From contig CAZSTA010000078.1 of assembly GCA_964609495.1 (NCBI GenBank), positions 1 to 15,093 on the forward strand: a DNA stretch of 15,093 nt. The letters are read 5' to 3'. This DNA comes from an uncultured bacterium (GTDB lineage Bacteria > CAZSTA01). A program made the position numbers and the translations under genes. This document shows, piece after piece, positions 1 to 14,335 of the stretch. Within the stretch, counting starts at the first letter, position 1, and every line of letters begins with the position of its first letter. The notes under the pieces are model-generated. The model saw only the letters and a program-made list of their open reading frames with translations, searched no databases and was not told where the DNA came from.

Positions 1-157
1 AGAAACTTCCCCTCGGTACTTTGCAGGATATATAATATGATATAATATTAACATTCTATCGTGTAATTTTACAATAATATTCACTCATATATTTATCATA
101 CCACACAACAATCACAAAGGAACTCTTTTGATCAAAGGTATAATTTTTGCTTACTAT
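1..157 (+). repeat. Left copy of a direct repeat flanking the gvp cluster; the right copy is at 14081-14213. Positions 1-55 are identical to 14081-14135, then a 2-nt indel, a ~40-nt copy-1-specific insert, and ~85% identity over 106-157 versus 14161-14213.
   Basis: Direct visual alignment of the two ends of the window. The shared core is agaaacttcccctcggtactttgcaggatatataatatgatataatattaacatt. The window starts at the repeat, so it may extend further upstream. Confidence 0.85.
20..46 (+). promoter_or_regulatory. Promoter-like core inside the flank repeat. It has an extended -10 TGATATAAT at 38-46, a weak -35-like TTGCAG at 21-26 with a 14-nt spacer, and a second TATAAT at 138-143 next to the near-palindrome cttttgatcaaagg at 124-137. 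The TA-rich stretch could alternatively be read as an archaeal TATA box.
   Basis: Motif reading only: TGnTATAAT is the extended -10 consensus of sigma70 promoters. The motif lies upstream of the HTH_17 gene and gvpA. Confidence 0.4.
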
Positions 158-213
158 AGTCGTAGATGCGAGGAAGTGTGTAGTTTGTTGTATTTGGGGA
201 TGAGGAGGCGAGT

Positions 214-417
214 GTGATTAGTAAGGTTGTTTTAACACCCCGGGTTATTGCGGAATACTGCCAGGTAAGTAAGAGCGCAGTTTTAAAGTGGATCAAAGAT
301 AAGTGGTCATTATCGTATTGATGAGGAGAAATTTAGGGACTTCCTTAAGAAATATAATATGCCTATTAAGGAAGAATTTTTTGAACATAAATCTAACCAG
401 AAAGGGGGTGAAGAATA
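214..417 (+). pseudogene. Small MerR-superfamily HTH_17 (excisionase/AlpA-like) DNA-binding gene interrupted by a +1 frameshift near 302-306. Its stop codon (415-417) directly abuts the gvpA start.
   Basis: Frame 1 from GTG 214, with GGAGG SD at 205-209, reads VISKVVLTPRVIAEYCQVSKSAVLKWIKDKWSLSY*. Frame 2 from 302 reads [38 protein letters not shown]. Removing one nt around 304 yields a 68-aa HTH_17-like protein (..LKWIKDKGHYRIDEEKFRDFL..). This is either a true frameshift or a sequencing indel. Confidence 0.55.
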
Positions 418-624
418 GTGGCAGTAACAACCTCAATGGCTCCTTCAGGGTTAGCAGAGGTTCTCGACCGTATCCTGGATAAGGGTATCGTACTCGATGT
501 TTGGGTTAGAGTCTCTCTACTCGGCCTGGAGATCCTTGCTATTGAAGCAAGGGTAGTTCTTGCCGGTGTCGAGACCTACCTGAAGTATGCTGAAGCGGTT
601 GGCTTAACAGCTCCAGCAGCCTAA
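418..624 (+). CDS. gvpA: Major gas vesicle structural protein GvpA
   Basis: GTG start with SD AGGGGGTG 7 nt upstream. The protein contains [52 protein letters not shown], the canonical GvpA core. An ATG at 436 is an alternative start. Confidence 0.95.
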
Positions 625-636
625 AGCTCACCAGGT

Positions 637-663
637 GGGACTTGCCAAGGTCCCCTTATTTAT
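637..663 (+). terminator. GC-rich hairpin (GGGAC..GTCCC) immediately after the gvpA stop, followed by the T-rich TTATTTAT. A candidate leaky terminator or attenuator that could set the gvpA:downstream transcript ratio.
   Basis: The inverted repeat is read directly. Partial termination after gvpA is well known in other gvp operons (established knowledge). Confidence 0.4.
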
Positions 664-699
664 AAGTGCACCTTGCCAAGTATTCCCTATCTGCTAGTT

Positions 700-727
700 G
701 ATGAACATTCATCATGAATGCTTCATC
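700..727 (+). promoter_or_regulatory. Extended hairpin GATGAA-CATTCA-tca-TGAATG-c-TTCATC (a ~12-bp stem) overlapping the RBS region of the next gene.
   Basis: Near-perfect inverted repeat read from sequence. It could sequester the AGGGAG SD at 732-737 and so control translation. Its function is inferred. Confidence 0.35.
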
Positions 728-741
728 AAAAGGGAGAAAAA

Positions 742-1449
742 ATGGAGGACTTAGTTTTAGACCTTATCACCTATTATGGGGATAAAGTCTCAACGGTAGA
801 GGAACTAATCACTACTGCTTATTGTGCTATATTAAACTCGGACGAAAATTTTAATGGACTTGATAGAGAGAGGGAAACTCTGAAGATTAGATTATGCGAA
901 ATGCTGGCTAAAAATTGCTCCTTCCGAAGAAAAGATTTCAATAGTTTGATGGAGAAGATCCTTGCCGATTCTGAGACAAAAAGGGTAGCGATTCAGGAAG
1001 AGCAAAATCAGGTTAAGAAGGCTCTGGGGGAATATTTAGCCCAACAGAAAGAGCTAGCAACCTATCTAAAAGGAGAGCTAATAGGATTTGTACAGGGAAA
1101 CTCAGATAGGGGGCATGTTAAGGCAATAATAAATGAAATTAAGAATATGTATAGGGATAGGGGGGAACAAATTTTTGCCCTCCTACGTAATCTTCAGTTG
1201 TATATAGAGACTTTTCAGAAGGAACAGGAGAAGATAAATCATAAATTGCAGCGGCTTGTAGAGAGAGGTGAATCTTTAAAAATAGAAGACCTAAGACAGC
1301 TTGAGGCGGCTAAAAGTCGCGAGGAGAGAAAGGCTGAAAGAAAGCTAAGGCGGGAGGAAGTGGAAGGACTATTAGCTCATTTCAAGCAGGAACGATGGGA
1401 AAGAAGTTTTTATAGGAAAAATAAGAAATCAAAGAAAGGAGGAGAATAA
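742..1449 (+). CDS. Coiled-coil protein with a GvpC-like repeat unit; a probable gas-vesicle-associated structural or scaffold protein.
   Basis: ATG 742 is preceded by AGGGAG SD; the ORF-track start at 718 lacks an SD. Charged, heptad-rich sequence. The segment DFNSLMEKILADSETKRVAIQEEQNQVKKAL matches the repeat unit of the next ORF. Stop TAA 1447-1449 overlaps the next ATG (ATAATGA). Confidence 0.6.
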   Translation: MEDLVLDLITYYGDKVSTVEELITTAYCAILNSDENFNGLDRERETLKIRLCEMLAKNCSFRRKDFNSLMEKILADSETKRVAIQEEQNQVKKALGEYLAQQKELATYLKGELIGFVQGNSDRGHVKAIINEIKNMYRDRGEQIFALLRNLQLYIETFQKEQEKINHKLQRLVERGESLKIEDLRQLEAAKSREERKAERKLRREEVEGLLAHFKQERWERSFYRKNKKSKKGGE

Positions 1450-2504
1450 TGACTATCGGTCCTGGGATGAGAGAACTTGTGCAGGAAATTACCTCTTCCC
1501 ATAAGGAAAGAACAGAAACAGTTAAGGGAATAAGGGAGGAGGCAAAGCAAATGAGGGAAGAAGCAATGGATTTAATTAGAGATTTTCAAACTACCCGAAG
1601 TAATGAGAGCGTTCAGTTAAAGGAGGAGTTAACAGAGGGAAAAAGAGAAAGGAGCTCTCTTGTTAAAGGGATGCTAGAGGATTTTCAGAATTCAAGGGGA
1701 GAAGAAGCTACTCAAATGCGTAAAGATTTAGCTCAGGGAAGTAGCGAACGTCGTTCTGAAGTTGAGAAATTACAAGAGGATGCCCGGCAAAGCATAAAAG
1801 ATTTTCACGCCCAGCGTAAGGAAGTGGGTACTCAGTTGAGAAAGGATCTTTCTACAAGCACAGCCAATAGAAGATCTGAAGTAAAAGCACTGCTGAGTGA
1901 TGCTCAGGAAATGATAGGGGGATTCCAAAGTTCAAGGGGAGAGGCGAGTTCTGAATTGAGGAAGGAACTTTCTCAGAGCGTATCCAATAACAGGGCTGAG
2001 GTGGAAGACCTCAGGAGAAACGCTAAAGCGTTAGTAAAAGATTTTAATAACACCCGTATAGAGACAGGCAAAGAATTGAAGAATGAACTGACTAAGGATA
2101 AAGCTGAGAGATTATCTGAAGTTAGAAAAATGCGGGATGATTTTCGTAGGATACGCTCGGAAGTGAGAGCAGACTTAAAAGAGGTAGCGGTAGCCTGGCA
2201 GGGATTAACAAAACCTGTAGAAGTAAAGGAAGTTGAAGTAGAAGCTCCTCCCAAAGAAGCAGAGGTTCCTATAGAAGAGGAAACTCCAACGGTAGAAGAA
2301 GTAGTTTCCGAGGAAGGAGAACGGGATTTTGAGTCAGAACTTTTAGCAATTGTCAATCGACATCCCGAAGGAATAACCCTTGTGGAATCAGCTGAGAGAT
2401 TAGGTGTCGCTTCTGTCGTTCTTGGACGAGCCTCTAAGAGTCTCTTGGACAGTGGGAAGATTCGTAAGGAAGATAGATTCTACTTCCCGGTAACAAGCGA
2501 GTAG
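1449..2504 (+). CDS. GvpC-like repeat protein with at least five ~40-aa repeats (DFxxxRxExxxxLRKxLxxxxxxRRSEVxxL) followed by an acidic linker and a C-terminal winged-helix (BirA/MarR-like) domain.
   Basis: Repeats are visible in the translation: DFQTTRSNESVQLKEEL.., DFQNSRGEEATQMRKDL.., DFHAQRKEVGTQLRKDL.., GFQSSRGEASSELRKEL.., DFNNTRIETGKELKNEL... The C-terminus LLAIVNRHPEGITLVESAERLGVASVVLGRASKSLLDSGKIRKEDRFYF fits a winged-HTH pattern. Position directly downstream of gvpA matches where gvpC sits in cyanobacteria and haloarchaea. No direct sequence identity to known GvpC is claimed. Confidence 0.7.
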   Translation: MTIGPGMRELVQEITSSHKERTETVKGIREEAKQMREEAMDLIRDFQTTRSNESVQLKEELTEGKRERSSLVKGMLEDFQNSRGEEATQMRKDLAQGSSERRSEVEKLQEDARQSIKDFHAQRKEVGTQLRKDLSTSTANRRSEVKALLSDAQEMIGGFQSSRGEASSELRKELSQSVSNNRAEVEDLRRNAKALVKDFNNTRIETGKELKNELTKDKAERLSEVRKMRDDFRRIRSEVRADLKEVAVAWQGLTKPVEVKEVEVEAPPKEAEVPIEEETPTVEEVVSEEGERDFESELLAIVNRHPEGITLVESAERLGVASVVLGRASKSLLDSGKIRKEDRFYFPVTSE

Positions 2505-2511
2505 TGATATT

Positions 2512-2913
2512 ATGAAAAGTGAAGCTCTAACAAAAGTAGGAACAGGACGTCAAATTAAAACTGGTCTTGACCTTGCAAGGAGTCAGAGTCAGAGGATAAG
2601 AACTGCCAACTCCCTTTCCCAACCGAAGGAAACTTTTGAATATCTTCAGCACCTAACCGACAGGGATGTGAAAAAGGAACTGCAGAGGGAGAAGATACGT
2701 TTTGCTACTCAGGATGCAGCAGTAGAAAAAGTAAGACGTAGAATTAGTGAATTAAGAGAAAATTTGGCGCGGACTATCAATAGAAACAGAGCTCTTACTG
2801 AATTAAGGCATGAGCTACAAAAGGCCAGATGGGAGGGTAGGGACCCAGTACCGGCGGAGAAAGAAGAGTCAAACCCTGGTCAAAAATTAAATCAGATAGA
2901 AGTGCGATATTAA
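2512..2913 (+). CDS. Hypothetical basic coiled-coil protein of 133 aa.
   Basis: Open frame with a weak RBS. Arg/Lys/Glu-rich helical composition and no recognisable family. Co-oriented within the cluster. Confidence 0.45.
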   Translation: MKSEALTKVGTGRQIKTGLDLARSQSQRIRTANSLSQPKETFEYLQHLTDRDVKKELQREKIRFATQDAAVEKVRRRISELRENLARTINRNRALTELRHELQKARWEGRDPVPAEKEESNPGQKLNQIEVRY

Positions 2914-3138
2914 TATTCGCTCATATTGGAGTAGCGTGCTTAGCTAAAGATGTCTTTATTTCATAATCACCCTCCCCTAAACCCCTCCCATCGAGGGAGG
3001 GGAAAATGGGAAGACAGTTCTATCTGGATGTCCCCTCTCCCCTCAGTGGGAGAGGGATAGGGTGAGGGTGAAAATTATTTCTTTCGCTCATTAGATCAGT
3101 CTAGCGCACCTTATGCAAATATGAGCGTTAATATTAGA
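2911..3138. repeat. A 228-bp MITE/REP-like structured element. Terminal inverted repeats TAATATTCGCTCATATT (2911-2927) and its reverse complement AATATGAGCGTTAATATTA (3118-3136) enclose an inner imperfect inverted repeat (2967-2984 / 3054-3071) and two GC-rich hairpins: CCCCTCCC-atcga-GGGAGGGG (2982-3002) and CCCTCTCCC-ctcagt-GGGAGAGGG (3033-3056).
   Basis: Nested inverted repeats read directly. The GC-rich poly-C/poly-G tracts stand out in an AT-rich intergenic region between ORF-133 and gvpN. A third partial copy of TTCGCTCAT lies at 3084-3092. Confidence 0.5.
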
Positions 3139-3152
3139 AGAGGAGGAGGATT

Positions 3153-4055
3153 ATGCAGGAAGAGCCCACAGTGCTTACTGCCCAACCAAGTGCTGATTTT
3201 GTAGAGACACCTTATATAAAGGAGCTAACAAGTCGGGCTATCGACTATATCAGAGCTGGTTTTCCCGTACACTTCAGCGGCCCAGCAGGGGTAGGAAAAA
3301 CTACATTAGCTTTACATATGGCTGCTAAGCTGGGCCGCCCGATTATATTAATCGGTGGAGACCACGAATTTAATAGTTCTGATCTAGTTGGTGGACTCTA
3401 CGGCTATCGTAGAAGATATACAAAAGACAATTTTATCCGCTCAGTTCTCAAGACTGATGAGAGTATGACTTCCCATTGGATAGACAATCGTCTCACGGTT
3501 GCATGTCAACGTGGACTTACCCTTATCTATGATGAGTTTACCAGATCACGACCAGAGGCAAATAACGTGTTACTCTCTATATTAGAAGAGAAGCTCCTTC
3601 CCCTGCCTGCCGCTAGAGGAGGAGAGAATTACTTAAGGGTACATCCCGATTTTGCAGCTATATTTACCTCTAATCCTGAAGAGTATGCTGGAGTTTACAA
3701 TAGCCAAGATGCCCTACGTGACCGTATGATAGCTATAGAACTGGGTAATTTTGATGAGGAAACAGAAGTTGCTATTACCCAGGCAAAATCTAAGCTTCCC
3801 TTAGAAGACGCCCAGCGGATCGTTAATCTGGTGAGAAAAGTTAGAGAGGTTAAATCGAACAAGCTTACCCCTACCGTAAGAGCATGCATTATGATGGGAA
3901 AGGTATTGAAGTTAAAGGGTGCATCAGCTTTCAGTTATGACCATACTTTTAAGCAGATCTGTCAGGATATCCTTATGCCTGAGATTCCCAAGGAGGAGAG
4001 AGAAAAAATAAGAGAGGTGATAGAGGATGCTCTGCTACTTAAAGGAGGATCATAG
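3153..4055 (+). CDS. gvpN: Gas vesicle AAA+ ATPase GvpN
   Basis: Strong SD AGGAGGAGGA precedes the start. Walker A FSGPAGVGKTTLALHMAAKLGRP and Walker B LIYDEF are present. Size (300 aa) and motif spacing are typical of GvpN/CbbQ-type AAA_5 proteins. Confidence 0.9.
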   Translation: MQEEPTVLTAQPSADFVETPYIKELTSRAIDYIRAGFPVHFSGPAGVGKTTLALHMAAKLGRPIILIGGDHEFNSSDLVGGLYGYRRRYTKDNFIRSVLKTDESMTSHWIDNRLTVACQRGLTLIYDEFTRSRPEANNVLLSILEEKLLPLPAARGGENYLRVHPDFAAIFTSNPEEYAGVYNSQDALRDRMIAIELGNFDEETEVAITQAKSKLPLEDAQRIVNLVRKVREVKSNKLTPTVRACIMMGKVLKLKGASAFSYDHTFKQICQDILMPEIPKEEREKIREVIEDALLLKGGS

Positions 4056-4203
4056 TTTCGCAGTTTTTGAAGATACTAAACTGAAAACTCCGTTTCCAAG
4101 TGGAATTAAGTCTATACTCAGTAGATCGCAATGCTAATATTTTATTCACTAAAGGATACATTTTGTGGTTAAAAATCGTCGAACTTTTTTAGAAAAGGGC
4201 TTG

Positions 4204-4236
4204 TTTTGTCCAGATTTTGCAGGAAAAAGGACAAAA
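4204..4236. promoter_or_regulatory. Perfect 8-bp inverted repeat TTTTGTCC-N17-GGACAAAA in the 374-bp AT-rich region upstream of hsp20/cdc48. The spacer contains TTTGCAGGA, the same 9-mer that lies inside the flank-repeat promoter core (20-28 and 14100-14108). A small hairpin TTTTGC-gga-GCAAAA lies at 4290-4304.
   Basis: Read directly from sequence. The operator-like geometry suggests binding by a dimeric HTH regulator. Function is inferred. Confidence 0.35.
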
Positions 4237-4429
4237 ATTATCCACCTTTGTGATCTAATGATACTTCGTATTAGCTCTGCATAACCGTATTTTGCGGAGC
4301 AAAACCAAATATTTTGGGATAGAGGAGGATATGTGTAACAAATTCTGCAAAAATTCTTATTAATAGTAGATTTTTGTATTTATGCTAAGCATAATTGAAA
4401 AATCTGTGAAAGTATAGAGGTGATAGTAT

Positions 4430-4927
4430 ATGGCTGAAAAGGAAGAGAAGGATAGAATTGAGATAGACTTTTTTGGGGGACTCTTTAAAGAGATTGGGAA
4501 CCTTATTGATCGTGCCTCCAAGATGGGGGAGGAAGGATTTGAAGAAACAGGGGAGATAAAATTCCCCAAGGGAGGTAAGGCAGTATATGGTATTAGTGTA
4601 AGGACTCTAGCAGGTAAGCCAGTAATAGAGAGATTTGGGAATGTGAAGGAGACCTCTAAAGGTCCAGTGGTGGAAGAGGTTAGAGAGCCAATCGTTGATG
4701 TTTTTGACGAAAAAGATCATATCCTTGTTATTGCTGAATTGCCCGGTGTATCGGAAGAGGATATAAAAATCGAAGTTTCTGGAGATGTTTTTAACCTTAC
4801 CGCCTCTAGTAAAGGTAGGAAATATGCTAAGGAGCTCCTTCTGCCGGCTAAAGTAAAAGCAGAGCCCCTTAAGAGTTCCTACCGGAATGGAATTTTAGAA
4901 ATTACATTGGAAAAGATAGAGAGCTAG
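4430..4927 (+). CDS. Hsp20/alpha-crystallin-domain small heat-shock protein (GvpH-like)
   Basis: SD GAGGTGA precedes the start. The alpha-crystallin-domain signature VDVFDEKDHILVIAELPGVSEEDIKIEV...YRNGILEITLEK is present. Haloarchaeal GvpH is Hsp20-family (established knowledge). Confidence 0.85.
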   Translation: MAEKEEKDRIEIDFFGGLFKEIGNLIDRASKMGEEGFEETGEIKFPKGGKAVYGISVRTLAGKPVIERFGNVKETSKGPVVEEVREPIVDVFDEKDHILVIAELPGVSEEDIKIEVSGDVFNLTASSKGRKYAKELLLPAKVKAEPLKSSYRNGILEITLEKIES

Positions 4928-5013
4928 TGTCAACTTACCCCTACTGATTGTAACACGAAGTATAGACTGAATCAGGAGAGGTTTCCGTGCCTGATTTAAG
5001 AGGAGGTAAATGA

Positions 5014-7194
5014 ATGGCTATGCGGGCAACCAGGGATGATGTAAAAGCATTAAACCTTCGTGTTGCTGAGGCAAAACCTAAAGATGTTGGAAGGGGGATT
5101 ATACGGATAGACCCCCAGGACTTTGAGAAGATAGGGGTAGATGTAGGAGATATTATTCAAATTGAGGGAAAGAGAAGGACCGTAGCTAAGGTTATGCCCG
5201 CTTATCCTGAAGACCGTGGCAAGTCCATTATCCAGATGGATGGAATTTTACGGAGCAATGCCCAGATCTCTCTTGATGAAAAGGTAACTGTTCAAAAGAT
5301 TAGAAGTTCCCCGGCAGATAAGATAGTAATAAGTCCGTTGACTCTGACAAGATTAAGCCGGGAGAGTGACACTAGATATATCGGCACCCTCCTGGATGGA
5401 TTGCCCCTAATAGAGGGGGATATTATTAGAGCCAATCTATTTGGGACTCGTAGTCAGGATTTTACAGTTCTTAGTACTATCCCAAAGGGGGTAGTGCTGA
5501 TTAACCCAGGAACTATAATTGAAGTGAAAAAAAAGGAAGAGATAGAGGCTAAAGGGTCCAAAATTTCTTACGAAGATATTGGGGGGTTAAGTAAAGAATT
5601 ACAGAAGGTTAGAGAAATGATCGAGCTTCCTCTGAAATACCCTGAGATTTTTGAGCGTTTGGGGATAGACCCTCCAAAGGGAGTATTACTCTATGGACCT
5701 CCTGGATGTGGTAAGACGTTAATTGCCCGTGCTGTAGCGAATGAGACCTCGGCCTATTTTACCCATATTACTGGTCCAGAGATTATGGGGAAATATTATG
5801 GTGAGAGTGAGAGCCGACTGAGAATGGTTTTTGCAAAAGCACAAACTAATACACCTGCTATTATATTCATTGATGAAATCGATGCTATTGCCCCCAAAAG
5901 AGAGGAAATGGGAGGAGAAAAACAGGTAGAGAGGAGAGTAGTTGCTCAGCTGCTCTCTCTAATGGACGGATTAGAGTCACGTGGTAATGTAATCGTTATT
6001 GCTGCAACGAATATTCCTAATTCTATCGATCCTGCTTTAAGAAGACCAGGGAGATTTGATAGGGAAATTGAGATCAGTATCCCTGACCAAAGGGGACGCC
6101 TGGAGATTTTGCAGATTCATACCCGTGGTATGCCTCTAGCTCAGGATGTAGATTTAGCTCAGGATATAGATTTAGAAAAGTTATCCCAGATCACCCATGG
6201 TTTTGTTGGTGCTGATTTGGAAGCGTTATGTCGTGAGGCAGCGATGAATGTATTGAGGAGGATAATGCCGGATATTGATTTTCAATGGTGTGGGATTCCC
6301 TATGAGACTCTATTACAGCTCGAAGTAACAATGGCTGATTTTGGAGAGGCTTTAAAGGAAGTAGAACCTTCAGCTATCAGAGAGGTCTTTATTGAGATTC
6401 CAAATGTGAAATGGGAAGATGTAGGGGGTTTGGGATATATAAAGCAAAAGTTAATGGAAGCTGTAGAATGGCCATCTAAATATTCTATTCTATTTGAGAA
6501 GGCAAAGATAAGACATCCGAAGGGAATTCTCTTTTCTGGACCTCCAGGTACAGGTAAAACACTAGTGGCTAAAGCATTGGCTAATGAAAGTGGGGTTAAT
6601 TTTATCTCAGTTAAAGGTCCTGAATTGATGAGCAAATATATAGGGGAATCAGAAAGAGGGGTAAGAGAGGTGTTTAGGAAGGCAAAACAGGCCAGTCCCT
6701 GTATTATCTTCTTCGATGAATTTGAATCGTTGGTCCCTGAGAGGGGGCCCTCCTCGGATTCTCAGGTTACAGAGAGGGTGATTAGTCAATTCCTTACCGA
6801 GCTCGATGGACTGGAAGAACTGAAAGGTGTACTAGTTCTAGCTGCTACTAATAGAAGAGACCTTATTGATCCTGCTATTTTAAGACCTGGAAGGTTTGAT
6901 TTTATTCTGGGATTTCCACTCCCTGATGAAAGCACAAGGGAAGAGATCTTCAAGGTTCATACGAGAGGAAAACCTCTGGCTCCTGATGTTAGTCTAAAAG
7001 GACTAGCTAGGAAGATGGATGATATGTCCGGTGCAGATATAGAAGCCATCTGTCGAGAAGCTTCTATGATAGCAATTAGAGAAGCTATTAGAGATGAATG
7101 TATGGATAATTTTCGGATCTCTCAAAAGTATTTTGATATGGCTATTGAATGGTTGAAGAGGCAGAAAGGAGAAATGGATGTCTTACCAGGGTAG
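5014..7194 (+). CDS. CDC48/VCP-like AAA+ ATPase with a CDC48_N domain and two AAA domains.
   Basis: The N-domain reads [27 protein letters not shown]. Walker A motifs are GPPGCGKT (D1) and GPPGTGKT (D2); Walker B motifs are IIFIDEID and IIFFDEFE. The protein is 726 aa, with SD AGGAGGT 6 nt upstream. The first 9 codons and RBS are shared with gvpJ. Confidence 0.9.
6139..6174 (+). repeat. In-frame 18-nt tandem duplication (gctcaggatGtagattta / gctcaggatAtagattta) encoding [12 protein letters not shown] in the D1-D2 linker of the CDC48-like gene.
   Basis: Seen directly; one mismatch between copies. Confidence 0.8.
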
Positions 7195-7924
7195 ATATTT
7201 CTATGGGATTATAGAGGAACCACAGTTTAAGAAATTTGAATTTTCTGGAGTGGGAGGGGAAGAGGTATATACAACTAGTTACCAGAATCTTTCCGCAGTT
7301 GTAAGTAATATTGAAGTTGGAGAGATAGATCCTATTAGAAAGAATGTACTTGCCCATACAGTAGTTCAGGATGAGGTTCTAAAAATTTATGATCTTCTTC
7401 CTATGGGCTTTGGAATGATAACCAATAGTGGGGAAGAGGTTATGAAGTTATTAGAGAAAAATTATCAGACGATTCTAAAAGAACTAAACCGACTTAAGGG
7501 TAAGATAGAGGGCGAGGTAAAAATCTTCTGGGACGAGGAGGCTATAATGAGAGAACTTCAGAACGAAAATCCGAAGTTCTCCAAGCTTAAAGCCAAGATA
7601 AGAGAAGCTTCATCTCCCGTTGAAGCGCAGAATCTACTTGCGGAAGCTGGTAGGTTGATAGAGCATATTGCTATGGAATGGAAGACTAAATATGCCGAGC
7701 GTGCCTATAATATCCTTAAAGACCTATCTATCGAGGCTAAGCTAAATGAGCCTTTTGGAGTTAAGAATATCCTAAATGCTTCTTTTCTGCTGGAAAGGAC
7801 TATGGAGAATAAATTTAAAGAAGAAATCTACCGATTAGATAGTGAGTATCAGGATAGACTAGATTTCAAATATGTAGGTCCCTTACCACCCTATAATTTC
7901 GTCAAAGTAAAACTGGAGCTGTAA
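7178..7924 (+). CDS. gvpF: Gas vesicle protein GvpF/GvpL family
   Basis: [10 protein letters not shown]...[17 protein letters not shown]...[26 protein letters not shown] matches the GvpF/L family pattern. The start overlaps the cdc48 3' end by 17 nt. Confidence 0.85.
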
Positions 7925-7925
7925 G

Positions 7926-8165
7926 ATGCTTGGACTCTCACTTTTATATGATATTTTTATAGGTGTTCCCTTTACCCTTGGAGTGAAAATACTGGAGAAA
8001 CTGAGGGATGAGATAGATAAGGAGCGCCTTATAACGGAAGATTCGATCAAGAAGAGGCTTCAGCAGCTACAACTATTGTTACAGGATGGAGAGATAAGTG
8101 AGGAAGAGTATGAAGAGTTAGAAGCTAAACTTATTGAAAGACTAAGAGCGGTAAAGGGAATATAG
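7926..8165 (+). CDS. gvpG: Gas vesicle protein GvpG
   Basis: A 79-aa protein with a hydrophobic N-terminus LLYDIFIGVPFTLGVKILEKL and the C-terminal EISEEEYEELEAKLIERL motif typical of GvpG. Confidence 0.8.
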   Translation: MLGLSLLYDIFIGVPFTLGVKILEKLRDEIDKERLITEDSIKKRLQQLQLLLQDGEISEEEYEELEAKLIERLRAVKGI

Positions 8166-8251
8166 TCAATGACCCCGCCCATGAAGGGCGAGGCTTGAGG
8201 GATCAAGCCTACGTTGACTAAGGGTAAGAGTTTCCGCCGACTAGTCTTTTT
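8163..8251 (+). promoter_or_regulatory. Structured intergenic element. A 7-bp outer inverted repeat TAGTCAA/TTGACTA (8163-8169 / 8214-8220) encloses two hairpins, CGCCC-atgaa-GGGCG (8176-8190) and GCTTGA-ggga-TCAAGC (8193-8208). The palindrome GACTAGTC followed by T5 lies at 8239-8251.
   Basis: Inverted repeats read directly. Same architecture as the 2911-3138 element (an outer inverted repeat around two GC hairpins). Probable RNA-stability or attenuator element between gvpG and gvpJ. Confidence 0.35.
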
Positions 8252-8274
8252 ATGAAAGTTAAGGAGGTAAATAA

Positions 8275-8652
8275 ATGGCTATGCAGGCAACCAGGGATGG
8301 ATCTTCTACCCTGGTGGATGTAATTGATCGCGTATTGGATAAAGGGCTTGTTATTAATGCTGATATCTGTGTTTCAGTAGCCGGGGTCGAACTTTTAGGG
8401 ATAAAGGTGAGGGCGGCTTTAGCTTCTTTCGAGACGGCAGCCAAGTATGGGTTAGAATTTCCTAGTGGAACAAATTATGAAACAGCTGCCTGGAAAGAGG
8501 TAAAGGTAGCTAAAGAGGAGTGTCCACAATGTGGAAAGAGGGTTCCTGCCGAAGAACTTATGAATGAAGGCTGTCCATGGTGTGGATGGATGAGTGCAAA
8601 GGCAAAGAAAGCTAAGCCTAAGCTAGCCCCTGAAATATCGGTAGAGGGATAG
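8275..8652 (+). CDS. gvpJ: GvpJ/GvpA-family protein with a C-terminal zinc-ribbon extension.
   Basis: N-terminus MAMQATRDGSSTLVDVIDRVLDKGLVINADICVSVAGVELLGIKVRAALASFETAAKYGL is the GvpA/J core. C-terminus CPQCGKRVPAEELMNEGCPWCGW carries four Cys arranged as CxxC...CxxC. Confidence 0.85.
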   Translation: MAMQATRDGSSTLVDVIDRVLDKGLVINADICVSVAGVELLGIKVRAALASFETAAKYGLEFPSGTNYETAAWKEVKVAKEECPQCGKRVPAEELMNEGCPWCGWMSAKAKKAKPKLAPEISVEG

Positions 8653-8655
8653 AAT

Positions 8656-9012
8656 ATGCCAGAGGATAAGAAAAATAGATTCAAAGGTTTATTGGGGCTT
8701 GATCCTACTTTAGGGGTAGGAGGCAAACTTTTAGACTATGTAGAAGAAGCACATGAAAAAGAAAAGACATTAAATAGTGATTACTATGCCTTTTGCCCAA
8801 AATGCGGTAAGAGACAGGTTAAGGTAAGTTTAATTGAAAATGGATGCTTCCTCTGTGGCTGGAAAGGAAAAGAAGAGGAGATAGAGAAGGCAAAACCAGG
8901 AAACGTAGAAGGAACTTCAGGATATAAAAGTATCTGCCCTAATTGCGATGCTTCTGTCATTACGGAGGAATTTCTGGAAAATGGGTGCTGGAAGTGTGGA
9001 TATAAAAAATGA
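8656..9012 (+). CDS. Small protein carrying two zinc-ribbon modules.
   Basis: The two modules are CPKCGKRQVKVSLIENGCFLCGW and CPNCDASVITEEFLENGCWKCGY. This is the same 'ENGCxxCGW' module as at the GvpJ C-terminus. SD GAGGGA precedes the start. Confidence 0.6.
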   Translation: MPEDKKNRFKGLLGLDPTLGVGGKLLDYVEEAHEKEKTLNSDYYAFCPKCGKRQVKVSLIENGCFLCGWKGKEEEIEKAKPGNVEGTSGYKSICPNCDASVITEEFLENGCWKCGYKK

Positions 9013-9454
9013 GGGTAATTTGACTCAATTTCTTGAAAATCTTGATGAAAAGAGCCGGGCTTTACTCTGGTATCTGTGGTGGCATAGGCATGCCAATATA
9101 TCTGAATTAAGGGAAGTTATAGATGTTTCAAGTGATTTTGAGGTTTTACATAGGTTGAAAGAAGTCATAAATGAGAAAGCCAAGAAGCTCTTAGGTAAGT
9201 TGATAGTAAACTTTGAGCCGTCGAAAATAGATCCTTATACTGGAGAAAAGGTCTTTTTTAGCTGGTGGCTTCTGGATGAGGAAGATAGTACTCTTTTAGG
9301 TGAGAATAAGCAACTGGTTGATATATTCAATGAGAAAGATAATATTACTATAATTGCCCAACTACCTGCTACAGTAGATTTTACCTCTCCAGAAATACAA
9401 TTTAAGAATAGTATATTGAAAATAAAACTAAAGAAGGTAGAGAAGAATGACTGA
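8981..9454 (+). CDS. Degenerate alpha-crystallin (Hsp20-like) paralog with a W-rich N-terminal domain. The start is uncertain: the ORF is open from 8948, ATG 8981 is chosen because GAGGAA lies 9 nt upstream, and it overlaps the previous gene out of frame.
   Basis: The C-terminal half, VDIFNEKDNITIIAQLPATVDFTSPEIQFKNSILKIKLKK, parallels the VDVFDEKDHILVIAELPGV...NGILEITLEK of the 4430 gene. The N-terminal half, LWYLWWHRHANISELREVIDV.., is unassigned. Confidence 0.5.
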   Translation: MGAGSVDIKNEGNLTQFLENLDEKSRALLWYLWWHRHANISELREVIDVSSDFEVLHRLKEVINEKAKKLLGKLIVNFEPSKIDPYTGEKVFFSWWLLDEEDSTLLGENKQLVDIFNEKDNITIIAQLPATVDFTSPEIQFKNSILKIKLKKVEKND

Positions 9455-9929
9455 AAAAGACAAAGATGAAGAAAAAATAGGTGGAGTAACTCAGGGAGTC
9501 CTTCACGGATTAGGGAGAATTATCCCTGGCTTTGAAGAAATTATAAAAGGTTTAGAAAAATCTACCGCTTTCCAGGAAAGATTAAAAGTGGCTAATGAAG
9601 AGATAGAAAAGAGGTTAAAAAAAGCCCCAACAAGGGGTAGGAATAATGTCATTCCACCTGAGAATACACTAAAGGTGAACCAAAACGCTGAGAGAGAATT
9701 GTTGATAGATATATTTGATGAAGGAAGTTATCTAAGGATAATTGCTGAGATGCCAGGTGTGGACGAAAAAGAGATAAAAATTGAAATAAAGGATAACCTA
9801 CTTATACTTTCTACCCCATCTGCTAGGTATAAGTATTACAGAGAGATAGAGCTACCCTGTTTGGTAAAAAAGGAATTTAACTTAGTTTACAAGAATGGTA
9901 TATTAGAGATCAAATTGGAGAAGAGATAA
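9447..9929 (+). CDS. Hsp20/alpha-crystallin-domain protein (second GvpH-like paralog)
   Basis: IDIFDEGSYLRIIAEMPGVDEKEIKIEIKDNLLILSTP...YKNGILEIKLEK is present. ATG 9447 overlaps the upstream stop at 9452-9454. Confidence 0.8.
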   Translation: MTEKDKDEEKIGGVTQGVLHGLGRIIPGFEEIIKGLEKSTAFQERLKVANEEIEKRLKKAPTRGRNNVIPPENTLKVNQNAERELLIDIFDEGSYLRIIAEMPGVDEKEIKIEIKDNLLILSTPSARYKYYREIELPCLVKKEFNLVYKNGILEIKLEKR

Positions 9930-9932
9930 TAA

Positions 9933-10256
9933 ATGGCTATTGATATTGATGCAGATAACCTCAAACAGGGTGTTTTGGGTTTGGTAATCGCCCTTGTGGA
10001 AATTATTAGGGATGCCCTGAAGATTCAAGCATTTAAAAGGGTGGAAAGCGGCATTCTTACCGAGGAAGAATGTGAGAGGTTAGGAGAAGCACTTATGGAT
10101 TTAGATATTGCAATCGAGGAGATAAAGGAAGAGCAGGGGATTACAGAATCTGTTCAGGCTATAAGGGATGGATTAGATGAGATTGTCGATGATGTAGTAG
10201 ATAGAATGGTTAACCCTGAAAGATGGAAAGAAGAGGCGAAAGAAAAAGGAATATAA
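9933..10256 (+). CDS. gvpK: Gas vesicle protein GvpK
   Basis: LGLVIALVEIIRDALKIQAFKRVESGILTEEECERLGEALMDLD matches the GvpK family pattern. Confidence 0.85.
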   Translation: MAIDIDADNLKQGVLGLVIALVEIIRDALKIQAFKRVESGILTEEECERLGEALMDLDIAIEEIKEEQGITESVQAIRDGLDEIVDDVVDRMVNPERWKEEAKEKGI

Positions 10257-10265
10257 GGGATGGAT

Positions 10266-11435
10266 ATGGAAGAGATATTTTATGCTGTGTTGGCTTTACA
10301 TATAGCTGGTAAACCTGTTAATAGAGAGAATATAAAAGCTATCCTTAAAGCTGTAGGGACACCGATCGATGAGAAGGCGCTTGATGCTATGGTACTCTTT
10401 GTTGAGACTTTGGAAGCTGCTCGTAGGGAGAGACAGAGGACTATAGATCCCAGAATCATCAAATTTCTAACAGATGAGCTAGAGCGACAGAAGGTAAAGA
10501 CAGAGCGACTGGAAGCCCTTTTAGATGAACTAACCAAATCTGTTACTCTATCAGAGGCTTATGAGTTTATACCTTCTGAGCGAGATACGGCTGAGGCAGA
10601 AGAAATAACTATTGAAGAAACTGAAAGTATCCCCCGGTATGAGGGAAGATATGTGTACGGAGTGGCTATGGATGGGAGAGAGGTGAATCTTGGTCCGATA
10701 GGAATAGATGGTAATGAGGTCTATACTATACCTTATAGGGGCCTTTCAGTTATTGTGCATAACTGTCCTCCTGAACCATACCAATCTAACGATGATGAAA
10801 TAGTAAAAAACTGGATAAGAACCCATCAGAATGTCCTTGATGTGGCAAAGGAACAATTCGGTACTATTATACCTATGGGCTTTGATATCATACTACAACC
10901 TGATGATGCTACTTCTCCCGATCAAGTTGTAAGAGATTGGCTTAAGGAAGATTATGATAGGCTCTTGACTGTGATGGAAAAGATAGAGGGTAGGGATGAG
11001 TACGGAGTACAGATTTTCTATGATCCAAAGGTGATAGGTGAGCTTATTGCCAAAAATAATGGGGAGCTCGAAAAATTAAAGGAGGAAATAGCTACCAAAT
11101 CGCCAGGGCTTGCCTATATGTATAAACAGAAGATGGAAAAGCTAATAAAGGAAGAAATGGAAAGGCTTGCTGAAGAATGGTTTAGAGATTTCTATAGTAG
11201 GATTAAAAGGCATTGTGATGATATTGTTATAGAGAAAACTAAAAAAGTTGAGAAGGATAAGATAATGCTAATTAATCCCTCCTGTCTTGTAGTCAAAGAG
11301 AATGTTGAGAGCTTAGGTGAAGAGCTAGAAAAGATCAATAGTATAGAAGGATTCTCTGTCCGTTTTACCGGTCCATGGCCTCCATACAGCTTTGTCTCCA
11401 AGCCAACGATAACAACCTCTAATATAGGAGGATAA
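10266..11435 (+). CDS. gvpL: GvpL/GvpF-family protein with an N-terminal domain (~60 aa) resembling the ribosomal stalk P1/P2 (L12e) dimerisation domain. ATG 10260 is an alternative start.
   Basis: The GvpF/L core is RYVYGVAMDG..VYTIPYRGLSVIVHN...NVLDVAKEQFGTIIPMGFDII. The N-terminus MEEIFYAVLALHIAGKPVNRENIKAILKAVGTPIDEKALDAMVLFVETLEAA aligns by eye with archaeal P1, (M)EYIYAALLLHSAGKEI.EENIKAVLEAAG..VDE.R.KALVAAL. The AGGGA SD sits 5 nt before ATG 10266. Confidence 0.8.
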   Translation: MEEIFYAVLALHIAGKPVNRENIKAILKAVGTPIDEKALDAMVLFVETLEAARRERQRTIDPRIIKFLTDELERQKVKTERLEALLDELTKSVTLSEAYEFIPSERDTAEAEEITIEETESIPRYEGRYVYGVAMDGREVNLGPIGIDGNEVYTIPYRGLSVIVHNCPPEPYQSNDDEIVKNWIRTHQNVLDVAKEQFGTIIPMGFDIILQPDDATSPDQVVRDWLKEDYDRLLTVMEKIEGRDEYGVQIFYDPKVIGELIAKNNGELEKLKEEIATKSPGLAYMYKQKMEKLIKEEMERLAEEWFRDFYSRIKRHCDDIVIEKTKKVEKDKIMLINPSCLVVKENVESLGEELEKINSIEGFSVRFTGPWPPYSFVSKPTITTSNIGG

Positions 11436-11525
11436 AATTGATGCTACATAATTGTCAAGGGACTGGAAAAGTCAGCCGTTCCCATAAGCTAATCTCTGGT
11501 ATCTGTGCGGAAGGATAGATAAATA

Positions 11526-12617
11526 ATGGAACCTACTAGAGATACACATGCTACATTAGTAGACCTCTTGGATAGAATTCTAGATAAAGGCTTAATACTT
11601 AATGCGGATCTAATTATCCATATAGCTGGCATCCCTCTTTTGGGAGTTAACCTAAAGGCTTGCCTTGCTGGAATGGAAACGATGCTAAAGTATGGTATCT
11701 GGCAAGACTGGGATGAGGCACAGAGGGTGATTGCCACTGAAGAAGAGAGGAAGAAGAAAAAAGTTCCCTTAGCTCCACAGGAAGATGTCTTCCTAAAGAT
11801 ATTTGCCTCCCTGTGGTACAGTAAAGGTATCTATCATACCCGGAGACCGGGGCATCTATACATCACCGATAGAAGGATATTCTTATTTAGAAAGGAACCA
11901 GCTGAAGTACTATTTCATTGTATGTATAAGGAGATAAAAGGAATCAGTACTGAAAGAAAGGCAAATATTACTGGCAAAGAGACGGATTATCTCTATCTAT
12001 GGCTTAACTCAGGAGAGATCGTTAAGTTGCATCCGACAGATGCTCAGCTTGTTAGAGAGACAATAGAAGAAAGAATGAAATTACTGGGGCTAGAGTTGAA
12101 GAAAGATATCCCCCTTCCTATACTCGATGAGGTAGCAATAAAGTTTTTATCTGAGGAAGAAGAAATTATCCATTCGGGAAAGATATCTTATCTAGTGGCT
12201 GAATCAAGACCGGGGGGTATTACCACCGAGGTATGGAAGCCGGGACATTTATATCTGACTGATAGGAGGTTAGTCTGGTGGTACGATTTCGATGGCAGGA
12301 TTGCTTCTGAATTACCTCTTGAGAAAATTCTGGGAGTTGAAATAAAAAGAAAAGATTTGGGTGATATGTTAAAGAATAAATCTGTTTTAGATTTGGCTTA
12401 TAAGAATGGTAGTAATAGAATTGCCTCTTTCTCTAGTAGTACGGAGGGACTAAATGAGTGGGAAAAAATAATAGGTGAGGTTATGATAGAATACGACAAG
12501 ACAGAAGAGTGCCCCAGGTGTGGCAGAAGGGCACCTATAGATAAGCTGCTTAAAGAAGGCTGTTCAATCTGTGGCTGGGTAAGCCCCAGGCTTAGAAAAA
12601 AGGAGATAGAAGCTTAA
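11526..12617 (+). CDS. Fusion protein combining an N-terminal GvpA/J/M-family domain, two GRAM/PH-like repeats and a C-terminal zinc ribbon.
   Basis: N-terminus [57 protein letters not shown] is the GvpA-family core. The two repeats are ..RRPGHLYITDRRIFLF.. and ..WKPGHLYLTDRRLVWWY.., matching the GRAM/bPH 'G.LYLT..RL.F' signature. C-terminus is CPRCGRRAPIDKLLKEGCSICGW. Confidence 0.8.
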   Translation: MEPTRDTHATLVDLLDRILDKGLILNADLIIHIAGIPLLGVNLKACLAGMETMLKYGIWQDWDEAQRVIATEEERKKKKVPLAPQEDVFLKIFASLWYSKGIYHTRRPGHLYITDRRIFLFRKEPAEVLFHCMYKEIKGISTERKANITGKETDYLYLWLNSGEIVKLHPTDAQLVRETIEERMKLLGLELKKDIPLPILDEVAIKFLSEEEEIIHSGKISYLVAESRPGGITTEVWKPGHLYLTDRRLVWWYDFDGRIASELPLEKILGVEIKRKDLGDMLKNKSVLDLAYKNGSNRIASFSSSTEGLNEWEKIIGEVMIEYDKTEECPRCGRRAPIDKLLKEGCSICGWVSPRLRKKEIEA

Positions 12618-12875
12618 ATGGATATTGATGAAATAATTAGAAAAACCCAAGAAACTTTTACTAGACTTACCAAGATACCTATCGATGGAATTACTGGTAT
12701 ATCAAAGACTGACCAGGGGTGGATGGTAGCACTAGAAGCACTGGAGAGAAGAGCCATACCTGATACTATGGATATACTAGGACTTTATGAGGTTCGCCTC
12801 GACAATGATGGGAATCTTCTTAATTTTGAGAGAAAGAAACTCCGTAAACGCGGTGAAACAGAGGGGGGAGAGTAG
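12618..12875 (+). CDS. gvpO: Gas vesicle protein GvpO
   Basis: DQGWMVALEALERRAIPDTMDILGLYEVRLDNDGNLLNFERKKLRKRG matches the GvpO signature (GW.v.vE..E....PDT.d.L..Y.v.lD.dG.L....R...Y.RG). ATG overlaps the upstream stop (TAAATG). Confidence 0.8.
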   Translation: MDIDEIIRKTQETFTRLTKIPIDGITGISKTDQGWMVALEALERRAIPDTMDILGLYEVRLDNDGNLLNFERKKLRKRGETEGGE

Positions 12876-12876
12876 A

Positions 12877-13110
12877 ATGAGTGCATGGAATAAATGTCCC
12901 AGTTGTGGAATCACTGTCAGTGGGATTGCCGATTACTGTCCTAATTGTGGAGAACCCTGGACTATAGAATGTCAAAATTGCGGAATAACTTGGCGATTCT
13001 GGGAAAATTATAAATTTTGTCCCAATTGTGGAGCTAAGGTAGAAAAGCGTGGTGTCACCAGAGGAAAGCAGAAGGTAGGACCAGGGGTTGGAAAACCAAA
13101 GGTTATTTAA
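12877..13110 (+). CDS. Double zinc-ribbon protein with four CxxCG pairs.
   Basis: MSAWNKCPSCG..YCPNCGEPWTIECQNCG..FCPNCGAKV. ATG 12877 is one nt after the gvpO stop, with a G-rich SD. The ORF-track start at 12787 would overlap gvpO and is unlikely. Confidence 0.6.
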   Translation: MSAWNKCPSCGITVSGIADYCPNCGEPWTIECQNCGITWRFWENYKFCPNCGAKVEKRGVTRGKQKVGPGVGKPKVI

Positions 13111-13147
13111 CCCAAGCTCCGCATTTTAGGAACGCATCACAATTTGT

Positions 13148-13416
13148 GGCTCTTTGAGGGAAAGTGTGAAGGGAAGTTAAGCACATTCGAGGAGGATATG
13201 TTGTCGGAAATTATCAAAGTTTCGATATCCGTATCCTCTCTGTTTGATGAGCTTAATCTCGTTATTGATCCCCTCGGCTAAACCATTGTTTATCCTCTCT
13301 ATAAAGTAATTCAAACTCTCCTCCCACCAAGAGCGAAGAGTATTTACGAATTTGAATAAAGTTCTTACCGCTTGCTCTACCTTATGACACCAAGAGGAGA
13401 AAAATCTCTCTTCGCT
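13148..13416 (-). mobile_element. Remnant of an ISL3-family insertion sequence: the 3' (C-terminal) transposase fragment on the minus strand (13177-13416) plus its terminal inverted repeat reading GGCTCTTTGAGGGAAAGTGTGAAGG inward from 13148. The other end is absent.
   Basis: Minus-strand translation gives SWWEESLNYFIERINNGLAEGINNEIKLIKQRGYGYRNFDNFRQHILLECA*. I recognise the 'EG.NNKIK.IKR.AYGYRNF.NFR.RIL' tail as ISL3 (DDE_Tnp_ISL3) transposases. Upstream frames are broken by stops. The GGCTCTT terminus matches my recollection of ISL3 inverted repeats. No reverse-complement inverted-repeat copy is found at higher coordinates. Confidence 0.6.
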
Positions 13417-13480
13417 TTATCCCATCCCTTGATCTTCTCAAAGATAGGGCGAAATTCCTCCTTCAAGAAATGAGTTCTAA

Positions 13481-13693
13481 GCAAATAGATTTAGTTCTTC
13501 ATATATTCCTAAGGAGGAGATAACCGATCTAGCGGGAGATATGTCCTTAGAAGAGAGATTAGAATTATCTGAGAAAAAGATAATCGAGGGCGCTCTAAAA
13601 GAGGTGGGAGGAAATCAAAGCCGGGCTGCCAAGATGTTAGGTATATCCCGATATAAATTGCGTTATCGAATGCAGAAGTATGATCTACTATAG
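13481..13693 (+). pseudogene. C-terminal fragment (Fis-type HTH_8) of a sigma-54-dependent NtrC-family transcriptional activator.
   Basis: ..MSLEERLELSEKKIIEGALKEVGGNQSRAAKMLGISRYKLRYRMQKYDLL* matches the C-terminal HTH of NtrC/NifA-type activators. No AAA sigma-54 domain is found upstream in any frame. ATG 13541 has a GGGAG motif immediately upstream, so a 50-aa stand-alone product is possible but unlikely. Confidence 0.55.
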
Positions 13694-13759
13694 TAGGTTG
13701 TGTGTTTTTACACTATATGTGGGAAATCACACACATATTATAATCCATTACGTGAAGTT

Positions 13760-13786
13760 CCCCGAGGCTTGCCTCGGGGTTTTCTT
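13760..13786 (+). terminator. Rho-independent terminator: a 9-bp perfect GC stem CCCCGAGGC-tt-GCCTCGGGG followed by TTTTCTT.
   Basis: Read directly; the T-run follows on the plus strand. A second hairpin ATATGTG..CACATAT lies at 13715-13738. Confidence 0.75.
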
Positions 13787-14080
13787 GGCATGATTATATA
13801 ACCTAGCTATCCTCTCGATATGTTTCCCTAATGGTGCAGGAGAGTATCATCTATTACCATAAAACCTTCCTTAGTGTTCACTCCCCTTCTTGCTAAAGAA
13901 GACATCTCTGAAGAAAGATTGCTTTTGTTACCACTACTGAGGAAAATTCTACTATGGATATCACTTCTTACTTCCTCTTCCTCACATCTCCCCCATCTGT
14001 GTTAATTTCCATAAATGTATTTAATATCACTTTTCTATTTCAAGGCATACATCTTTAAGTGATAGTTATATTGATTTTGC

Positions 14081-14213
14081 AGAAACTTCCCCTCGGTACT
14101 TTGCAGGATATATAATATGATATAATATTAACATTTTCTATCGTGTTGCCTTTGCAATATAACAATCGCAGAGGAACTCTTTTGATTAAAGGTATGATAT
14201 TTGCTCTTTATAG
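14081..14213 (+). repeat. Right copy of the flank direct repeat. It carries the same extended -10 TGATATAAT at 14118-14126.
   Basis: See the 1-157 entry. Confidence 0.85.
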
Positions 14214-14335
14214 ATGTTAGACGACTCAAGTACTACCTAAGTGCATATATCTACTATTTTAACTTCTGATATCTAAAAGCAGGGAATATTTCTCCCCTTA
14301 AAGTTAGGATATAGTGTTAAGGAGGGGCAGATGTA

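Follow-up and report, generated by a model that had tools for sequence, protein, structure and literature searches.

Organization of the locus

The DNA considered here, referred to as the window, is an entire contig of 15,093 bp from a metagenome-assembled genome (MAG) of an uncultured bacterium, and its position 1 is the physical end of that contig. It carries a gas-vesicle (gvp) gene cluster whose two ends are marked by co-oriented copies of a direct repeat, R on the left and R' on the right, each followed on the same strand by a short open reading frame (ORF) with helix-turn-helix (HTH) features. The initial annotation had proposed two readings of this arrangement, a duplicated regulator-plus-promoter cassette or a pair of recombination substrates. 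The repeat is real but ordinary: it probably consists of upstream DNA that was duplicated in a part of the MAG prone to rearrangement. Much of the evidence comes from L028, a closely related metagenome contig of 2,289 nucleotides (nt) that was found with a degenerate 24-mer from the second part of the repeat (block 2, positions 107-159). The features at the two ends of the window are the following.

1-168, + strand: R, the left copy of the repeat, which the contig start truncates; its first 55 positions match the right copy without a difference
56-139, + strand: stretch of R paralogous to R', identity about 85%
From about 140, + strand: part of R that is orthologous to the promoter/leader of a psi-HTH_17 unit of L028
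214-417, + strand: psi-HTH_17, pseudogene of a small gvp-linked gene of excisionase fold (BldC-like), with its N-terminal and C-terminal parts in two frames
13148-13472, - strand: remains of a transposase of the ISL3 family (PF01610, E = 1e-13), with ~110 C-terminal codons spread over three frames
13501-13693, + strand: 3' fragment of a sigma-54-dependent activator gene (HTH_8/Fis, last ~65 codons)
13760-13786, + strand: intrinsic-terminator-like hairpin with T-run, after the activator fragment
14081-14223, + strand: R', the right copy of the repeat in its native context, orthologous to 694-860 of the reverse complement of L028 (L028rc)
14336-14467, + strand: MerR-like N-terminal stub of 43 amino acids (aa), probably a gene fragment; frame not kept in L028
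14473-14673, + strand: ORF of 66 aa, by eye similar to the last part of a response-regulator receiver domain with a linker; no Pfam hit

Two copies of one repeat unit

The repeat itself was confirmed as first described. Positions 1-55 are 100% identical to 14081-14135, and similarity continues at ~85% to 157/14213; once indels are allowed, it can be followed to about 159-168 on the left and 14213-14223 on the right. In a gapped pairwise alignment the copies form one nearly continuous unit and not two blocks. An indel of 2 nt lies at 55/56, beyond which TCTATCGTGT and TTT[A/G]CAAT keep aligning; next comes a gap of about 26-29 nt in the right copy (left 79-106), after which the similarity extends to about 168/14223, with 45 of 53 matches (85%) between 107-159 and 14161-14213. 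Past about 168/14223 the flanks of the two copies are unrelated. A run of 55 straight matches has a probability of about 1e-4 at 85% identity, which makes the higher similarity of the 5' tract, compared with the remainder of the repeat, a genuine one.

A common dispersed genomic repeat, which the initial annotation had named as a refuting outcome, was not encountered. An exact search of genome, metagenome and viral collections with the 55-nt core returned no other copy, the remainder of the source MAG lying outside this search, and block 2 was matched just once in these collections, at the orthologous locus of L028. Since no many-copy pattern was seen there and the repeat unit has no terminal inverted repeats (TIRs), its identity as a dispersed repeat or a miniature inverted-repeat transposable element (MITE) was rejected within the same scope.

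The related locus L028 and the origin of the two copies

On its reverse strand, L028 presents the 3' end of the activator gene, the terminator, a spacer, R' and the MerR-like stub in this order, at about 94-98% identity to the window, indels aside. Its activator has an uninterrupted reading frame to the contig end, and a search with the C-terminus of this protein returned L028 alone. About 1.2 kb downstream of R', on the same strand and with no gvp cluster between, L028 carries units of the HTH_17 pseudogene. These psi-HTH_17 units stand in tandem (reverse strand 1896-2289), with a period of 248 nt and 94.6% identity. The order of features in L028 indicates that the activator/MerR-stub locus is the native place of R'; in L028 this locus lies upstream of the psi-HTH_17 units.

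A three-way comparison separates the history of the parts. R' of the window differs from R' of L028 at one of 55 positions in the 1-55 tract and at 2 of 53 in block 2; in the 56-106 segment R' of the window carries a deletion of about 29 nt that is specific to its lineage. R and R' of the window show 0/55 differences in 1-55 and 8/53 in 107-159. Between R and R' of L028 there are 1/55, 7/51 and 8/53 differences in 1-55, 56-106 and 107-159, respectively. Judged from this divergence, R and R' appear to be old paralogues that differ by about 15% and are older than the split of the window and L028 lineages at roughly 4%. An exception is the 5' tract, 55 nt or more in length, which seems to have been homogenised recently; this suggests gene conversion or crossover between the copies.

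From about position 140, R tracks the psi-HTH leader (ATAATTTTTG..., TAGATGCGAGGAAGTG...), and window positions 140-369 are 94.8% identical to L028rc 2024-2251. R thus has the makeup of a chimera, in which the first ~139 nt of R' type would have been joined to the promoter/leader of psi-HTH_17-gvpA. The joint falls within a patch of weak homology (ATAATTTTTG / TATAGATG).

Two further observations concern L028 itself. Like the window, this contig ends inside a repeat, in its case the tandem psi-HTH_17 repeat. It also contains an insertion of 259 nt (reverse strand ~900-1155) at a TTAA, flanked by TIRs of 11 nt (GTAGTTTCAAA…TTTGAAACTAC), and the window is without it at the corresponding position 14258/14259. 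This insertion looks like a recently mobile MITE of the lineage.

The ORFs next to the repeat

The left ORF is frameshifted and ends 1 nt before gvpA, in agreement with its first description (214-417). Frame 1 encodes the N-terminal part at 214-303 and reaches its stop at 319-321; the C-terminal part covers 302-417 in frame 2, ending with TAG at 415-417, directly before the GTG of gvpA at 418. A net deletion of 26 nt has removed the conserved GKLQAYRLP segment of the HTH_17 protein and shifted its frame. An identical 26-nt lesion is found in both psi-HTH_17 units of L028, so it arose before the two lineages separated. The reconstructed protein reaches 22.6 bits against a cut-off of 27 bits for HTH_17, and the window copy is 63% identical over the aligned parts to its orthologue in another relative, L011. 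By position and similarity the window copy belongs to a gvp-linked HTH_17 family, as a pseudogene. In L001, the closest relative of the cluster by GvpF (69%), just a C-terminal remnant of HTH_17 is left. On these grounds the left ORF is a pseudogene of a conserved cluster component and not a recombinase partner.

As for the right ORF (14336-14467), the reading frame exists, but its assignment as a small MerR-superfamily gene did not hold. The MerR_1 profile is matched at 13.6 bits (E = 0.076), below the cut-off of 21.6 bits and over profile positions 1-29 of 69, and there is no NCBIfam hit. A MerR-family regulator was rejected here, given a length of 43 aa, the sub-threshold score and a frame that is broken in L028 by a 1-nt length difference. 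No relation was detectable between this stub and the 66-aa MerR-type gene that stands upstream of gvpA in the relative L029, nor was there detectable paralogy between the left and right ORFs of the window (E about 0.7). The neighbouring ORF at 14473-14673 is probably another gene fragment, and downstream of the right copy some 800 nt pass without an intact gene.

The right end of the cluster is also scarred. The coding pieces of the ISL3 relic lie at 13180-13472, the 5' part of the transposase gene is absent, and an end resembling an inverted repeat (GGCTCTTTGAGGG) is found at 13148, about 37 nt past the last gvp gene. The activator fragment is truncated at about 13495-13500, where it adjoins this insertion sequence (IS) relic. 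A second ISL3 remnant was seen in L011 (2561-2686), upstream of the HTH_17-gvpA genes.

Promoter and RNA signals

Two motifs had been ascribed to the identical core. The extended -10 element TGATATAAT is indeed present there, at 38-46 and 14118-14126; the near-palindrome, however, lies outside it. It corresponds to TTTGATCAAA at 127-136, in the 85% block, and since the right copy and R' of L028 read TTTGATTAAA at this place, the palindrome is specific to the left copy. The motif TGnTATAAT is common to all three copies (R, R' and R' of L028). The pair TTAACA-N16-TACAAT (48-75; 10/12) occurs in the left copy and in R' of L028, and the deletion in the right copy turns it into TTAACA-N19-TGCAAT. 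The left copy contains in addition a TATAAT at 139-144. In L028, each psi-HTH_17 unit is preceded by a strong sigma-70-like promoter, TTGATA-N17-TATAAT with TG extension. A second promoter-like 38-mer (GAGTATTGACAATCTCTATTTTTTATGATATGCTATAA) was observed in three copies upstream of the same units.

Other signals were sought with little outcome. The neighbouring sigma-54 activator was the reason for a search for sigma-54 promoters (TGGCAC-N5-TTGC), which gave one match against 3.8 expected, outside the repeat. The Rfam families had no match in the repeat and three sub-threshold chance matches elsewhere in the window, and RNA folding of both copies against shuffled controls gave z-scores of -0.01 and -1.44, that is, no signal. 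A structured cis-regulatory RNA was discarded on the basis of these two results. An archaeal TATA-box promoter was likewise set aside in view of the strong Shine-Dalgarno sites, the fragment of a sigma-54 activator with Fis-type HTH_8 and the Chloroflexota relatives.

The start of the contig

That the window is a complete contig follows from its GvpF protein, which has one exact match among 5.8 billion proteins, in an NCBI record on a contig of 15,093 bp. The repeat opens this contig: exactly 55 nt lie ahead of the first difference between R and R', and a second occurrence of this 55-mer starts at 14081. When a de Bruijn assembler writes out an edge that leaves a branching vertex, the edge starts with the k-mer of that vertex; the default largest k of metaSPAdes is 55. 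From this assembler behaviour we infer that the contig start is a branch vertex of a de Bruijn graph with k = 55, and the segment 1-14080 formally corresponds to a loop edge in the assembly graph. The likeness to contig termination at repeats in SPAdes or metaSPAdes assemblies with a final k of 55 lies in a contig that opens with the 55-mer before the divergence and contains it again inside. It differs from that textbook case in that k is deduced here; the sequence itself is real, as a 56-mer across positions 1-56 must exist in the reads.

Because the contig starts at the repeat, the repeat length is a lower bound and its left boundary is censored. Any longer identical repeat would likewise show as 55 nt at 100%. 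The identical tract could extend to the left, possibly over ~640 nt, which would take it back from 14135 to the IS/activator junction near 13495. Since reads bridge 55 nt with ease, the absence of an assembled leftward extension hints at a longer collapsed repeat.

Probable duplication of upstream DNA in an unstable region

The reading favoured here, with a probability of roughly 0.6, is that the repeat represents non-coding upstream DNA of the gvp operon, duplicated in a region that has undergone rearrangement and whose regulator genes are broken, and that its apparent size was set by the cut of the contig. R' would have its native place between the terminator of the sigma-54-dependent activator gene and a decayed MerR-like gene. 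Duplication and deletion events in a visibly unstable region probably left the present arrangement; the marks of this instability would be the ISL3 relic, the truncated activator, the MITE-like elements and the tandem psi-HTH duplications in L028. The left copy is likely the promoter region of the psi-HTH_17-gvpA operon, since it holds the sole sigma-70-like elements seen upstream of these genes, and the right copy would be a relic with nothing intact to drive. Neither of the adjacent HTH ORFs is expected to give a functional protein. Co-oriented copies of this kind could allow loss or amplification of the cluster in a RecA-dependent manner, which would be incidental and not programmed.

Several points weigh against this reading. 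L028 is about 95% identical everywhere, a level at which conservation cannot separate functional from neutral positions. A scan for consensus promoters found 3 sites against 1.6 +/- 1.2 expected from shuffled sequence, which is not significant in such AT-rich DNA. One prediction of the simplest history by tandem duplication fails: the right end should then run back into the leader, but the final 55 nt occur nowhere else in the contig. The order of events is beyond reconstruction from two sequences. The order repeat - cluster - repeat rests on the path that the assembler took through a graph loop, and the argument from k = 55 refers to an assembler that, like its k, is absent from the sequence record.

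In an explanation that is unlikely without being negligible, the bracketing arises partly or wholly from traversal of a repeat in the assembly graph. The 14,080-bp segment leaves and re-enters the same 55-mer vertex, so that the linear order of R, cluster, R' and tail would be one of several possible pairings. The real molecules could then be a tandem amplification, an excised non-replicating circle alongside a chromosomal R'-MerR locus, or two structural haplotypes. The opening of the contig at the shared 55-mer, its recurrence at 14081 and the missing extension through a mere 55-nt repeat agree with this. So does gene order in the relatives: in L028, psi-HTH_17 is preceded by R' and the MerR stub, and in L029, a more distant relative, a small MerR-type gene lies upstream of HTH_17. 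Set against these, the window resembles the ancestral order after circular permutation. However, the copies differ past position 55 and hence represent two distinct loci whatever the pairing. The junctions of cluster, ISL3 relic and truncated activator are unique, and a degenerate IS relic is unlikely to be a collapsed multi-copy repeat. Replication and partition genes were not found in the window by Pfam scan, and no plasmid match was obtained for it.

That the loop is real in a biological sense, with the 14-kb gvp cluster tandem-amplified or looped out by homologous recombination between the co-oriented repeats, is a long shot. If this were true, repeats of at least 55 nt, maybe ~640 nt, would produce heritable on/off or dosage heterogeneity of buoyancy in the population, and repeated exchange would have left its trace in the 100%-identical tract. 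Of the recombination-substrate interpretation, two parts survive, namely the co-oriented copies and a 100%/85% mosaic that suggests exchange and makes deletion or amplification plausible; the programmed mechanism does not. The hypothesis offered from this is that copy number or presence of the gvp cluster may vary through the repeats.

Known unstable systems provide a measure for this hypothesis. The Vac phenotype of Halobacterium salinarum is unstable through IS elements and rearrangements. The window resembles it in having an IS relic and rearrangement scars by the repeats, and in that loss or gain of the cluster is mechanistically possible. It differs in that its repeats are non-coding upstream DNA and not IS copies and that no structural variant has been seen in it; moreover, it comes from an uncultured bacterium with a gvp cluster of the Dehalococcoidia type, and its repeat length is a lower bound. 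With gene clusters flanked by direct repeats that segmental duplication or gene conversion has left behind, and through which RecA-dependent deletion or amplification can occur, it shares co-oriented repeats at both ends of the cluster and a mosaic of identity.

A functional duplicated cassette, in which each copy is an active promoter/operator that drives a small MerR-superfamily regulator and the two ends are under coordinated control, is very improbable. Sigma-70-like motifs do occur in both copies, each copy is followed by a same-strand ORF with MerR-superfamily HTH features and a strong Shine-Dalgarno site, and intact HTH_17 orthologues are conserved by gvpA in relatives, so that the ancestral gene probably regulated gvp. 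Against this, both ORFs are broken and the HTH_17 lesion is old, being present in L028. In the right copy the 29-nt deletion breaks up the best -35/-10 pair, leaving a 19-nt spacer; the palindrome is not conserved there, and no intact gene lies within reach of that copy. The cassette proposed at the outset thus loses its regulators, one to a pseudogene and the other to a sub-threshold stub whose frame is broken in L028, and its coordinated control is hard to reconcile with ORFs that are not paralogous, a palindrome absent from the right copy and a damaged right promoter.

Site-specific excision, with the copies as attL and attR of a mobile gvp island and HTH_17 as its excisionase (recombination directionality factor), is hardly to be entertained: intact orthologues pass the TIGR01764 cut-off, the repeats are direct and flank the island, and the 5' edge of the cluster lies near tRNA-Ile or tmRNA, classic integration sites, in several relatives, but the window has no integrase or recombinase and a repeat that is not tRNA-derived, HTH_17 is a pseudogene here and a fixed cluster member in at least eight relatives, no recombinase was found by eye in the ORF lists of L011, L012, L019, L022 and L026 (read without a domain scan), the 85% similarity past the core fits homologous paralogues and not BOP'/POB' att sites, the fold also occurs in regulators unconnected with recombination, and relatives with the intact gene are without bracketing repeats. 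The excisionase-type mobility that had been suggested for the island was dropped accordingly.

The ssrA-targeted genomic islands of Dehalococcoides are an example of islands with attL, attR and Xis. The window is like them in its direct repeats at the ends, an HTH ORF of the excisionase family at one edge and, in some relatives, a tRNA or tmRNA near the edge. It differs by its lack of a recombinase, tRNA and tmRNA, by homology that continues past the core, and by an HTH gene that is a pseudogene here and is vertically conserved with gvpA. An integrative island with att sites was therefore rejected as an identity for the region: there is no recombinase in the window, no intact excisionase, no tRNA or tmRNA, and the arms are homologous at 85%.

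The main value of the case is a caution. What looked like a neat repeat-bracketed island with its own regulators turns into a contig break at a repeat, pseudogenes and an IS-scarred region.

A conserved HTH_17 gene in front of gvpA

The more interesting lead comes from the relatives, in which an HTH_17 gene is conserved in front of gvpA; the lineage of the window has lost this gene. An HTH_17 gene of 73-116 aa stands directly before gvpA in at least eight relatives, with a distance from stop to start of -1 to 6 nt. Its positions are as follows.

L010: 111-329
L011: 3309-3539
L012: 2200-2427
L014: 3835-4077
L016: 827-1048
L020: 1503-1724
L026: 3638-3883
L029: 4001-4351

The intact orthologues match PF12728 at 44-47 bits and TIGR01764, the "excisionase family DNA-binding domain", at 32-44 bits, above its cut-off. 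Their best matches in the PDB are chains of 6ama/6amk, followed by RacA. Entries 6AMA and 6AMK carry the database label "Putative DNA-binding protein", and we take them to be BldC of Streptomyces. The orthologues stay below the cut-off of the BldC subfamily (26-36 versus 77 bits). The family comprises 64 protein clusters in a large protein database, several of which are labelled "excisionase family DNA binding protein", and no description of an HTH_17 gene before gvpA was found in the searchable literature. The gene in front of gvpA in clusters of the Dehalococcoidia type is a candidate for a dedicated gvp regulator in uncultured Chloroflexota.

BldC, RacA and MamR are regulators of HTH_17 type that are not excisionases, and the intact orthologues share their fold. 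The likeness to MamR extends to the setting, an HTH gene embedded in an organelle gene cluster, which is a magnetosome cluster in one case and a gvp cluster in the other. The difference from BldC is that the orthologues of the relatives fall under the subfamily cut-off and have a function deduced from sequence, and that the gene of the window is dead.

The regions upstream of HTH_17 in more distant relatives had no motif in common with the repeat, as non-coding DNA no longer aligns at 60-69% protein identity. Direct motifs of the type TTGTGATAAT / TGTGAC(A) were noticed ~200-300 nt upstream of the HTH_17 start in L012, L016, L019, L020 and L026. These repeats are possible operator sites in the five relatives; the window is without the motif.

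An equivalent of the bracketing repeat was not found in the relatives, those with an intact HTH_17 gene included, apart from one candidate in L022 (93 nt at 73%). In L022 a tRNA-like 3' end (~2860-2895) accompanies this direct repeat, whose second copy lies 13 kb downstream. Elsewhere, the 5' edge of gvp lies 0.3-1.7 kb downstream of tRNA-Ile(GAT) (L029 2236-2312, L012 1253-1329) or of smpB-tmRNA (L026 2940-3289). It is conceivable that the cluster of these relatives could sit in an integration hot-spot; no integrase was seen.

The gvp cluster between the copies

The cluster proper (418-13110) is collinear with clusters from MAGs of Dehalococcoidia/Chloroflexota. All its features are on the + strand.

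418-624: gvpA, 68 aa, starting with GTG; a terminator-like hairpin comes next at 637-654
718-13110: rest of the gvp cluster, opening with three ORFs of unknown type
3153-4055: gvpN-like AAA_5 gene
4430-4927: Hsp20
5014-7194: CDC48-like double AAA
7178-7924: gvpF/L
7926-8165: gvpG
8275-8652: gvpJ-like gene
8656-9012: Zn-ribbon, followed by an ORF of unknown type
9447-9929: Hsp20-like gene
9933-10256: gvpK
10260-11435: gvpL/F
11526-12617: GvpA-domain/GRAM
12618-12875: gvpO
12787-13110: second Zn-ribbon

Pfam scans covered all ORFs of at least 50 aa in the cluster and its flanks. Apart from the ISL3 relic, they revealed no integrase, resolvase or other transposase among the ORFs of the window.

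Three features within the cluster deserve mention. The CDC48/p97-like double-AAA ATPase (5014-7194; CDC48_N and CDC48_2) is conserved in this type of bacterial gvp cluster beside the gvpN-like AAA_5 gene. A direct repeat of 38 nt (95%; 5001-5038 and 8262-8299) spans the Shine-Dalgarno site and codons 1-8 (MAM[R/Q]ATRD) of two genes, the CDC48-like AAA ATPase and the gvpJ-like gene, which are otherwise unrelated and thus have a translation-initiation region in common. Finally, the gap before the gvpN-like gene contains a GC-rich palindromic element (…CCCTCCCCTAAACCCCTCCCATCGAGGGAGGGG…; 2966-3072) that resembles a MITE or a repetitive extragenic palindrome (REP). It gives a spurious sub-threshold match to the Rfam family "mir-188", and two inverted copies of it are found in L028 (reverse strand 979-1080 and 1479-1583) at 78-86% identity.

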